Assembly: GCA_964016885.1 (NCBI GenBank)
Contig: OZ024741.1
Span: 343,914,001-343,978,000, forward strand
Origin: Eledone cirrhosa
Taxonomy: Eukaryota
DNA length: 64,000 nucleotides
Direction of reading: 5' to 3'
The first letter of the stretch is position 1; each line of letters begins with the position of its first letter. Below, piece after piece: positions 16,128 to 19,871 of this stretch. Below the pieces are notes generated by a model. The model ran no database searches. It saw only the letters and a list, made by a program, of their open reading frames with translations, and had not been told where the DNA came from. The translations under genes and the position numbers were made by a program.

Positions 16128-16253
16128 TACCCATCCTCCGGCCCCTCTAGAGAATCGTAAAAGCACATATCGTTATATGCTTTTTCTATGAAAATTAGTA
16201 GTGGGCAGACTAATTTGCATAGAGCGTGAGTACGTACCGGTTCAGCGGAAGCG

Positions 16254-16505
16254 ATAAAAACAAATAACGAAACGAAATTAAATTTCGTTTCGTTTGTAAC
16301 TCACTTTTGTATGACTGACGCTTAAACAATTAAGTTAGAAGTGTACATCCACATATGTATACTGAAATACTAGTATGCATATAAATACACACACACGTAT
16401 ACATATGTGGATGTACACTTCTAACTTAATTGTTTAAGCGTCAGTCATACAAAAGTGAGTTACAAACGAAACGAAATTTAATTTCGTTTCGTTATTTGTT
16501 TTTAT
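16254..16505. repeat. Fold-back inverted repeat
   Basis: 16254-16360 is the reverse complement of 16398-16505. 15860-15945 is a direct copy of the centre. Confidence 0.85.
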
Positions 16506-16675
16506 ATATATATATATATATATATATATATATATAATTTATATAGCCGTCGCGTTCTGACTTTTTTATATAATCATACACTACTATTCTAAATATTGAG
16601 TATTCTATTGAGTAATGATTTAATTAGTTTTAAACTGGTTATATCCTAATTTATATATATATATATATATATAAG

Positions 16676-17572
16676 TTGAAAAAAATGAAAACGAAATTTC
16701 ATTTCTCACTCTTAGTATGGCACTTACTTAAATGTAAGTATGTATGTATACGTACATACATATATGTATACAGACGTACAGTAGCATGCATATATATATA
16801 TATATATATATATATATATATATATATATATATATATATATATATATATATATATATATATATATATATATATATATATATATATATATATATATACACA
16901 TATGCATACAGGTACACATACATATATGCACGCATCAGTTTAGCCGACGTTTATCATAACGCCGGCCGCTTTGTTCGTTTGTTTGTCAACAAAGCGAACG
17001 GCCTGAATTTATGCCATACGGTGTTAAGGCAATTTAAGTAAGTGCCATACTAGGAGTGAGAAATGAAATTTAAGTAAGTGCCATACTAAGAGTGAGAAAT
17101 GAAATTTCGTTTTCATTTTTTTCAACTTATCGTTTTCGGTATGCCTGACCGATTTAACTCACTCAATATGCAAATTAGGCTGCTCAGCCGTTAATTTTCA
17201 TAAGGAAAGTATATACTTTCGAACGTTCAACTATCTGGCAGATGGGTAAACGGTGCTGATGATAGCTAACAAGCTTGAAACTAGTACATCGTTCCTGTGT
17301 CAGTGTTGAACAAAAAGGTGACGTGGTTGCCTTAACATCGTATGGCATAAATTCAGGCTGTTCGCTTTGTTGACAAACAAACGAACAAAGCGGCCGGCGT
17401 TATAATAAACGTCGGCTAAACTGATGCGTGCATATATGTATGTGTACCTGTATGCATACGTGTATATATATATATATATATATATATATATATATATATA
17501 TATATATATATATGCATGCTACTGTACGTCTGTATACATATATGTATGTACGTATACATACATACTTACATA
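16676..17572. mobile_element. Dispersed inverted pair of the 466-bp HHR family
   Basis: 16676-17031 is in array orientation; 17032-17572 is inverted, with octamer, TATA palindrome, HHR and AATAAA (17404). Confidence 0.9.
17249..17293 (+). ncRNA. Canonical minimal type I HHR
   Basis: aacggtg-CTGATGA-t agct aaca agct t-GAAA-C TA G-TA-catcgtt. Confidence 0.92.
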
Positions 17573-17706
17573 TATATATATATATATATATATACGTGTG
17601 TCTGTGTGTGTGTGTGTCTCTGTCTGTCTGTGTGTGTGTGTGTGTGTGTGTGTATTTGTGTATGTTGTGTGTGTGTCTGTGTGTATATCTATATACATAT
17701 ATATGT

Positions 17707-17780
17707 AGCCGCCTCTGTGGCCTAGTGGTAGGTATTAGAGACGGTTGAGACACTGGTCTTGGGTTCATCTCTGCCAGAAT
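17707..17780 (+). mobile_element. tRNA-like SINE head
   Basis: A-box TGGCCTAGTGG and degenerate B-box GGGTTCATCTC; no intact cloverleaf. Confidence 0.45.
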
Positions 17781-18436
17781 GTACATTAAATATTATTTTT
17801 GTATTTTCCTATTTACACATCTCACTACTTGAATGTATGTTAACGCCAGAGTAACAGGCAAATTTGATAAGCGGCTTAGGCCGATTTGTCATCTATCCAT
17901 GGGTAGAGTGAAATATATTTTATAAATTTCAAATATCATTTAGGAAAATACACGTAATTTAAGCTGGAAAAAGTCAAATATTCCAATATGTATTGATAAC
18001 CTAACACACACACACACACACACACACACACACACACACACACACACACACACACACACACACACACACACACACACACACACACACACACACACACACA
18101 CACACATATATATATATAATGAAAATAAAAAGTTACGGGCGAGAAAGAGGACATTATTCATCATTAGTTGTCTGCTAGGAATCATCGATATTTCTTCGCG
18201 TTAGAGACAATATATCTCAACCTAGTAAGATCAACAACTAAAATAAGTTATTGGGATAAAAAAGGGGAGAAAGAGAAAAAAATACGTAAACAGACACGAA
18301 ATGTAAAACAACGTATATATGATTCCAGTTCCTCAGAGAAATAGCAACACAACCTGGAGCTGGACATATCGATGTATTGATGGAATAAAACACACTTCAA
18401 CAAACATGTGCACCTGTCTTTCCCACACCAATTCGG

Positions 18437-18492
18437 ACTGCCTGAAGATGGTCACAACCAATGATGGCTGTCACCGAAATATATATAGCAGT
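18437..18492 (+). ncRNA. Type I HHR in mini-element 18318-18645
   Basis: actgc-CTGAAGA-t ggtcacaacca atga tggctgtcacc-GAAA-T ATAT A-TA-gcagt, with AATAAA downstream. Confidence 0.85.
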
Positions 18493-18802
18493 ATATCTAT
18501 AATTTATAATAAAACGAAGCCAAATTTCACCAATTTGACTTAATTATTTTACATTACTCCGGAGTAAACAAACCAACCTGCGTACCTCGTCGAGTGCTCC
18601 AATCTGCATACTGAGGTGTCGGTAAACAACCAACATATACTCAATATATATATATATGAACATCACCTAAAAAAGCACAAGAAAATACATAAAAATGCAT
18701 TCTTCACTCGGCTACGTAGATAATTAAAATATATAAATATTTGTGCTCTAAGCGACCGAACTGTACAATATATTTACATATATACATATATGCATACATA
18801 TA

Positions 18803-18920
18803 GGCGCGTGGATGAGTGGTTAGATAATTGGATTCCAAATCGTGAGATAGTGAGTTCGAATCACGACCGGGTAATGCGTTATGTTCTTGAGCAAGACACT
18901 GTATTTCACGTTGCTCCTTC
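18803..18920 (+). mobile_element. tRNA-derived SINE family B, partial
   Basis: A and B boxes then GTTCTTGAGCAAGACACT...TTCACGTTGCTCC; same family as 48705-48965. Confidence 0.75.
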
Positions 18921-19214
18921 TACCTGGTAGTGCGACAGATAGATAGTTTTAGTAATTGAAAGACCAATGGAAACATTCATACTTCGGTCTGATTTGACAA
19001 AAGTCGGAAGTCGATCCAATGTCGATATATATATATATACAGACACAACTTTATTGTACAGTTCGGCCGCTTAGAGCACAAATGAATATATATTTTAATT
19101 TGTCCATTTCAGGATACAACTATAAGCAATATAATTCTATAAACCCCTTGATTATTTATTTTCTTGTGCTTGTTAGGGTGATGGTCATACCTTCTTATGA
19201 AGACCAAATATGGC

Positions 19215-19260
19215 GATAGACAGCACTGTTTCAAGATTTGTTAATCTCTCATCAGAGGTG
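19215..19260 (-). ncRNA. HHR core without adjacent stem I
   Basis: CTGATGA-g agatt aaca aatct t-GAAA-CAG TG CTG-TC. Confidence 0.55.
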
Positions 19261-19745
19261 TCCACTCATCCAGTAGTAGCGTGACTATCATCTGTTTATT
19301 GTATCTAGACATATATTGTATGTTTTCGTATACACGCTTAATATTTTGAAGGTTCTGCAAATAAAGTATACTCCTAATTGTAATGGTTCACTTATTCTGA
19401 CAAAAGCAAACACACACCTACGATATATATATATATATATATATATATATATATATATATATATATATATATATATATATATATATATATATATATATAT
19501 ATATATATAAGTATGCATGTATACGTACATACATATATGTATACAGACGTACAGTAGCACGCACATATATATATATATATACATATATATATACATATGC
19601 ATACAGGTACACATACATATATGCACGTATCAGTTTAGAGGCGCTAACGTCGCTTTGTTCGTTTGTAAACAAACTGAACAGCCTGAATTTATGCCATACG
19701 GTGTTAAGGCAACCACGTCACCTTTTTGTTCAACACTGACACAGG

Positions 19746-19790
19746 AACGATGTACTAGTTTCAAGCTTGTTAGCTATCATCAGCACCGTT
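19746..19790 (-). ncRNA. Array HHR, representative unit
   Basis: aacggtg-CTGATGA-tagctaacaagctt-GAAA-CTAG-TA-catcgtt. Predicted cleavage after GUA, between 19753 and 19752. Confidence 0.93.
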
Positions 19791-19818
19791 TACCCATCTG
19801 CCAGATAGTTGAACGTTC

Positions 19819-19871
19819 GAAAGTATATACTTTCCTTATGAAAATTAACGGCTGAGCAGCCTAATTTGCAT
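19819..19871 (-). promoter_or_regulatory. Putative octamer-dyad plus TATA promoter module, repeated in each unit
   Basis: Minus strand ATGCAAATTAGGCTG-ct-CAGCCGTTAATTTTCAT, then GAAAGTATATACTTTC about 30 nt before the HHR. Also conserved at 16165-16220 and 46740-46795. Confidence 0.55.

Follow-up and report, generated by a model that had tools for sequence, protein, structure and literature searches.

How does a mobile element that encodes no protein come to be transcribed? The question is raised by a 64,000-nucleotide stretch of the Eledone cirrhosa genome (GenBank assembly GCA_964016885.1, contig OZ024741.1, positions 343,914,001 to 343,978,000 of the forward strand), referred to below as the window, which holds non-coding repeats with a hammerhead ribozyme preceded by an octamer and a TATA-like box. 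The octamer belongs to a 12-mer, TATGCAAATNAG, that is invariant in 6/6 families (A, B, C, G, H and I, one representative each) and that matches promoters of the host U6, U6atac and RNase MRP genes. The module looks like a hybrid internal promoter of small nuclear RNA (snRNA) type, in which a word of RNA polymerase III (Pol III) genes is followed by a core at +15 and then by the TATA-like box. An snRNA-type promoter ahead of the ribozyme would explain the transcription of protein-free elements.

Retrozyme units and their conserved module

The repeats are filed, from their sequence features, as retrozymes without long terminal repeats (non-LTR retrozymes): they are tandem or inverted, have a type I hammerhead and are set in (TA)n. 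The source genome, 3.0 Gb in size, is AT-rich and microsatellite-rich. Units measure 410-470 bp (family A 466 bp, family B with a period of 469 bp, family C ~413 bp) and have the order promoter, hammerhead, body and T run; no credible open reading frame (ORF) is present in the retrozyme unit. The window holds a 466-bp family A array, an inverted A pair (16671-17575), families B and C and a decayed copy of an A subfamily. The features on which the argument depends are listed here, with offsets counted from the octamer.

15862-16505, minus strand: family B retrozyme insertion, ~1.1 units, 3' end +355 at 15862
~16390-16505: short inverted partner of the family B insertion, 3' end +429; both B ends lie in (TA)n
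16210-16221, minus strand: family B promoter 12-mer TATGCAAATTAG, octamer at 16220-16213
Minus strand: family B CCCACT at +15, inverted half at +23 and CATATAA at +41 (16179-16173)
16090-16120, minus strand: family B type I hammerhead core, two-pair helix III within the palindrome ACTAGT, long helix I
16671-17032, minus strand: family A inverted partner, 5'-truncated, with its end at +428 in (TA)n, immediately after the T run
17033-17575, plus strand: family A copy, 3' end +369 in (TA)n
17167-17178, plus strand: family A promoter 12-mer TATGCAAATTAG, octamer at 17168-17175
17183-17188, plus strand: CTCAGC, candidate proximal-element core of family A, 27 nt ahead of the TATA-like box, as in host U1, U2, U5 and U12
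17192-17201, plus strand: inverted octamer-like half (dyad) TAATTTTCAT of family A, family-specific
17210-17216, plus strand: TATA-like box TATATAC of family A, octamer +42
17250-17292, plus strand: family A type I hammerhead with helix I, core at 17256-17286 and minimal palindromic helix III

The motifs quoted in an earlier note on this DNA, octamer, TATA and hammerhead included, are all present in the window. Every intact unit has one type I hammerhead, and the core is found in all six array units and in the inverted copy. The cores are canonical and their helices pair with different letters in A, B and C. The note's remark that the stems near 16083 (family B) differ from those of A yet still pair holds good (fold z -4.7). 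In family A a U-U stands at the base of helix II, cleavage is predicted after 17286 and transcription is predicted to start at ~17240, from the -30 spacing of host genes. An Rfam scan of the window gave 0 hammerheads at gathering score, the models missing these cores. Across the genome the exact core pattern for families A and B has 15,817 matches (control 0) and a pattern with a longer helix III has 33,370 (control 65).

Helix III sits in a palindrome in families A, B, H, G and I (ACTAGT, ACATGT, ACAGCTGT, ATGCAT), and such a covarying palindrome may be read as a sign of dimeric cleavage. In an abundant B subfamily, whose arrays reach 30 units, the cleavage triplet reads GTT in place of GTC (loci L217, L218, L224, L225, L228, L232, L234 and L238; loci fetched from the genome have numbers prefixed by L).

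Families G, H and I were revealed by a search for the octamer followed by a non-A/B core pattern (2,515 genome matches versus 1 for the control). This search selected for the octamer, and conservation is therefore fairly tested on letters that were not selected. T-1, A+9, G+10 and CA+17/18, unused in any family-finding search, are 100% identical across the six families, while the flanks and spacers around the module are only 26-38% identical; the octamer region thus proves more conserved than its surroundings, as the note had proposed. A YATATA (TATA-like) box lies at octamer +41 to +43 in 6/6 families. In an octamer-blind sample of A and B loci the octamer stands upstream of the hammerhead in 28 of 30, one of the others being truncated and one inverted.

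The dyad, which the note had counted as part of the module, is not shared in this way. At a threshold of at least 8/10 complementary positions it is found in A, B and I (8-9/10) and not in C, G and H (5-6/10); C and G repeat an octamer-like site in tandem upstream instead. As a conserved element or RNA hairpin the dyad was rejected, being present in only 3/6 families and forming no hairpin in C. A role of the motif in RNA, as a hairpin or as a site recognised by a protein or reverse transcriptase (RT) in the circle, is most improbable. The module region does lie within the unit RNA and the hairpin folds in A (z -1.8) and B (z -4.7), yet not in C (z 0.5). The 5' arm of the dyad is invariant, so there is no compensatory change, and at U6, U6atac and MRP, where the word has a fixed position upstream of the gene, it is outside the transcript.

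The octamer is not a property of all hammerhead families, a generalisation that was tried and rejected: only 1/30 loci from an octamer-blind long-helix search had it. That sample is nearly octamer-free because family E dominates it. Family E has CCAAT and TATAAATA upstream of the hammerhead and no octamer; family F (L048, L055, L108, L109) has CCAAT and a TATA-like box. No other hammerhead is as common in the long-helix sample as that of family E, GAAACAGTTCTAGTC, which often forms tiny inverted pairs (window 46255-46288, minus strand; L031-L060).

Genome-wide, the 12-mer TATGCAAATNAG has 45,223 matches versus 1,088 for its reversed pattern, a control that contains CG and may run low. The dispersal of POU-type sites suggested in the note is thus true as a count, the sites themselves being putative. 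Among the first 100 listed sites, 73 were read, 58 lying in these elements and 15 outside (one script match to B was reassigned by eye); the remaining 27 have the spacing of a 466-bp B array that they prolong, which brings the total in these elements to 85/100. Since the sample is one clumped 14-Mb stretch, the resulting ~38,000 element-borne sites are only a rough figure. On this estimate the elements supply most copies of a predicted POU-type 12-mer in a 3-Gb genome.

Host snRNA promoters and the parts of the module

The layout of the host promoters was drawn from loci L111-L130, L131-L172, L189 and L199-L215. The Pol III set is made up of the three U6 loci with the best scores, one of them a tandem array and two of them single genes, of the best U6atac locus and of the sole RNase MRP match, whose promoter was fetched after the 12-mer pattern had been noted. 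In these 5/5 intact promoters a 12-mer with at most one mismatch to TATGCAAATKAG lies at -76 to -78 and TATA at -30, and the family A word TATGCAAATTAG is the same as that at -77 of one host U6 locus (L112). Left out of the count are lower-scoring U6 and U6atac hits as well as L124 and L125, which look like promoterless retrocopies. The 12-mer is found in 0/12 lower-scoring U6 hits, is not at that place in 9/10 U6atac loci and is absent from L124 and L125. In 6/16 fetched U6-array copies it is displaced to -270 by an insertion, a 192-bp repeat between TATA and gene (L117, L118, L120-L123) that probably silences those copies. U1, U2 and U5 also occur in long tandem arrays.

Host snRNA promoters of RNA polymerase II (Pol II) have AATTA near -89, a RYCAGT-like core at -56 to -59 (ACCAGC at -59 in U12) and a TATA-like box near -30, unlike vertebrate Pol II snRNA genes, which have no TATA-like box near -30. 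These host genes are without the octamer, so the vertebrate picture of a distal octamer enhancer does not apply as such. A distal TTACCTCCCTT-like word ~230-275 nt upstream is common, by eye, to several host U1, U2, U6 and U12 genes, and a AAAATCAGAC-like 3' box lies downstream of U1, U2 and U5. Family C has AAAAACTCAGAT at ~+255 to +268, just ahead of its proximal 3' end; it resembles the host snRNA 3' box and may be there by chance.

The elements may share parts with both classes of host gene. Their octamer-to-TATA distance is 41-43 nt in 6/6 families versus 46-48 nt in host Pol III genes, hence 4-6 nt shorter. Their core-to-TATA distance is 26-28 nt versus ~26-29 nt in host Pol II snRNA genes, with CA invariant. 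The note's proposal of an internal snRNA-like promoter for ribozyme RNA gains support, as a prediction, from the word's match to the host U6, U6atac and RNase MRP promoters and from its conservation beyond that of the flanks.

Insertion ends, the proposed cycle and its alternatives

Each family has two fixed points at which its insertions end, in (TA)n. In family A 8 ends lie at +369 and 7 at +427/428, among 25 listed; in family B 2 lie at +355 and 3 at +429, among 5; in family C 12 lie at +268/273, besides ends at the T run, ~+300. The tails are 59, 74 and ~30 nt long. Inverted pairs show one long and one short end (in the window and at L002, L004, L021 and L107). Partial tandems, inversions, a one-sided tail and a bias for (TA)n are reported for Penelope-like elements in the available text of PMC8557442, and two internal RT start sites in that of PMC11167929; two 3' ends per family and long/short inverted pairs fit such a tail and two RT start sites. 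In its accessible part, a 2026 preprint derives retrozymes from Penelope pseudo-LTRs (10.64898/2026.07.22.740005). The insertion pattern, the tail and the microsatellite target all agree with non-autonomous elements that would be mobilised by Penelope.

Candidate mobilisers are nearby. Broken RT/GIY-YIG fragments lie in the window at 2502-3912 (plus), 9676-10932 (minus) and 30970-32796 (minus), and at L091. We take these ORF fragments to be Penelope-like from their RT and GIY-YIG motifs, and two have a cysteine-rich linker, presumably that of Neptune-type elements; Pfam matched 0/8 Penelope-like ORF fragments. At the single locus L091 such a fragment stands between B arrays, set apart by (TA)n and sharing no common repeat with them. 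U6 and U6atac retrocopies are fused to pieces of families E and C (L124, L193), which suggests that the same mobilising enzyme may have switched templates onto snRNAs.

The reading favoured here, to which we give an even chance, is that of a superfamily of type I retrozymes mobilised by Penelope, with their own inherited snRNA-type promoter made of host parts and most likely read by Pol II. A factor of Oct/POU or SNAPc type would bind the 12-mer, as at host U6, and Pol II would start ~72 nt after the octamer, just before the hammerhead, and pass the T runs into the next unit. The hammerheads, probably as dimers, would free unit-length RNA with the promoter at its 3' end, and this RNA would be circularised. 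A Penelope-like RT/GIY-YIG protein would then nick (TA)n, prime at one of two internal sites and copy round the circle, so that every new array would hold promoters again. Copies have the promoter although T4-T8 runs separate it from the upstream hammerhead, a point in favour of a polymerase able to read through.

Several points weigh against this reading. Transcription, start site and polymerase are all deduced from the letters, and the 12-mer is found in 0/16 host Pol II snRNA promoters (U1, U2, U5 and U12; one per visibly different lineage, from 62 fetched loci). Contigs of four sequencing runs cover only low-identity pieces of 35-40 bases and are uninformative on expression. With a matrix built from 15 host Pol II cores, +15 comes first or second among 148 offsets in 6/12 copies only, and 13th-24th in the other 6 (B, one H, three G and I). 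The offset that scores best for the copies jointly is +6, at the octamer's own 3' end, a hint that the two host elements may have an AATNAG word in common. The 0/5000 shuffle result counts related families as independent. The host AATTA (~-89) is without a conserved counterpart in the elements, the matching stretch at -20 to -2 being 30% identical across families. The distal 3' end comes directly after the first T run, as expected of a Pol III end. No autonomous element with this promoter was found among the two loci checked for ORFs (L091, L107), no genome-wide search having been made.

Some of these points suit a Pol III type-3 promoter, U6-like or dual for Pol II and Pol III like that of vertebrate H1, which we regard as a serious though doubtful alternative. 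Pol III would make an RNA of 230-350 nt that begins before the hammerhead and stops at the T run, and a unit-length template would arise only by leaky read-through or through Pol II. Besides marking 5/5 Pol III and 0/16 Pol II host promoters, the 12-mer is followed in A, B and C by a stretch from ~+60 to +300-420 without a T4 run, in which A4 runs do occur, a post hoc and weak observation; the distal insertion end then comes after the T run. Type-3 promoters such as vertebrate H1 can load Pol II too, according to the available text of PMC11340601. The spacing, however, is shorter than in every host Pol III gene, and family G has T5-T6 runs only 50-80 nt past the cleavage site. A terminated RNA would, moreover, be without the promoter, yet arrays hold it, those with T7 runs included (L008-L012).

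The weak match of the +15 core in half of the copies speaks for another alternative, an ordinary Pol II promoter of messenger RNA type, independent of SNAPc, whose likeness to U6 would reflect a shared POU factor only. A POU site ~40 nt ahead of a TATA box is found in immunoglobulin and histone H2B genes. Families E and F place CCAAT and TATA before their hammerheads, and octamer-like sites occur two or three times over in arrangements that vary, in the manner of activator sites. Against it, T-1 and AG, which lie outside the octamer, belong to the match as well, and the CA core stands at a constant distance from TATA that resembles the snRNA one; we judge such a promoter unlikely.

A bolder view, which we consider improbable, is that of a chimeric promoter kept across nearly unrecognisable families, in which the 12-mer specific to Pol III in this host is set in the geometry of Pol II snRNA genes. 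Such a promoter may engage both polymerases, Pol III giving a short ribozyme RNA and Pol II the unit-length circle, and would have spread ~38,000 U6-type sites. If true, these dispersed sites would be enough to compete for or redirect the snRNA-gene factor.

The families also bear on how the module came to be shared. Outside promoter and ribozyme, B aligns to A over ~330 bases at 65%; alignments are found in the tail for A-B, A-C, A-H and C-H (z 3.6-11) and in the upstream region for A-B and A-H (z 7-8). The test is noisy, since the low-complexity pairs A-F and H-F also pass. The earlier note had described the module as portable across divergent families, a view that suits neither the alignment of A, B, C and H outside the module nor the lack of the octamer in the commonest sampled hammerhead family. 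Separate capture of a portable module by unrelated families is quite improbable. In its favour, G has no detectable alignment to A, B, C or H, upstream or in the tail (z <=2.3); against it, order and spacing are the same in all six families, and the non-hammerhead repeat J holds ATGCAAATAAG but neither core nor TATA. Common descent is the simpler reading, with separate capture possible for G and I. Repeat J occurs at L220, L243, L244, L249, L251 and L252, and a similar stretch is found at L091 (minus strand, ~5415), antisense to the Penelope-like fragment and immediately past the end of its ORF.

The window has further copies of these elements, as follows.

19219-19255, minus strand: G-type hammerhead core, octamer absent upstream (old or truncated copy)
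19508-22166, minus strand: family A tandem array, period 466 bp, 5.7 copies, 98% matches, 5 octamers
22151-22365, plus strand: inverted A copy, from the palindromic TATA-like box into an assembly gap
45541-46130, no single strand: family C inverted pair, three tandem octamer-like sites at its centre, cores at 45691 (minus) and 45929 (plus)
46446-47075, plus strand: copy of an A subfamily (D) with inverted partner, octamer at 46743, core at 46831

The family A array flips orientation at its palindromic TATA-like box. The note had given its range as 16160-19871; only one array octamer lies inside that range and the array extends to 22166. The note had also seen the same motif order at 45725-45850 and 46740-46795, and the motifs are present there, at the centre of the family C pair and at the octamer of the D copy; the core at 46831 has lost GAAA, so that copy is probably inactive. 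The window has 12 octamers versus 5.6 expected, a borderline excess (2/100 shuffles). More hammerhead-like cores lie at 5422, 18442, 33651, 36534 and 47781. A ~200-bp repeat resembling a short interspersed nuclear element, in tandem and single copies (50469-52275 and 23330-23600), is also inserted in many fetched loci.

Place among known retrozymes and snRNA-type promoters

Retrozymes themselves are already known; what is new is the invariant 12-mer and its match, with at most one mismatch, to host Pol III promoters. A literature search, with most subscription papers and supplements outside it, turned up neither a description of this promoter in elements of the kind nor one of the way these host promoters are laid out, and the available text of two retrozyme papers, PMC7229834 (Cervera and de la Pena 2020) and 10.64898/2026.07.22.740005 (Li et al. 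2026), names no element promoter; the first uses the word promoter two times, each time for T7, and the second never. The module would offer a route by which non-coding animal retrozymes reach high expression, newt being the only precedent found. Its parts and its predicted start (~octamer +72) can be stated base by base against host snRNA genes, and the host U6 promoter layout, defined as a by-product, is of use for guide-RNA vectors. In insects the polymerase depends on small differences, themselves conserved, within the proximal element (PMC1761439, available text), and the families form a natural series on what settles the choice of Pol II or Pol III in this animal lineage.

Like animal non-LTR retrozymes, as described in the accessible parts of PMC7229834 and 10.64898/2026.07.22.740005, the elements are non-coding, low in GC and present in many thousands of copies, as tandem units that each hold one type I hammerhead; with 410-470 bp, these units lie at the upper end of the reported 150-450 bp or exceed it. 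The weak palindromic helix III and the U-U at the base of helix II recall axolotl HHR_Amex1/2, retrozymes that cleave best as dimers (PMC7229834, in the same parts). Penelope pseudo-LTRs, so far as the available text of PMC8557442 and PMC11167929 describes them, resemble the elements in their partial tandems, their one-sided tail, their inverted copies with truncated 5' ends, their (TA)n targets and the presence of a hammerhead and promoter in the repeat. The elements differ from them in having no ORF and in their tails of 59, 74 and ~30 nt.

Type-3 Pol III promoters (host U6, U6atac and RNase MRP; vertebrate H1) have the same compact 12-mer ahead of a TATA-like box, from which the elements depart by their shorter spacing and the addition of a candidate Pol II-type core. 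The promoter of newt satellite 2, the subject of Coats, Zhang and Epstein in 1994, reportedly contains an octamer. This satellite is the closest parallel in kind, a hammerhead satellite with an internal snRNA-type promoter, cited as transcribed by Pol II in the available part of PMC2220036. The elements depart from newt satellite 2 in the promoter-proximal position of the octamer word, in having a TATA-like box and in the word itself, which marks host Pol III genes.

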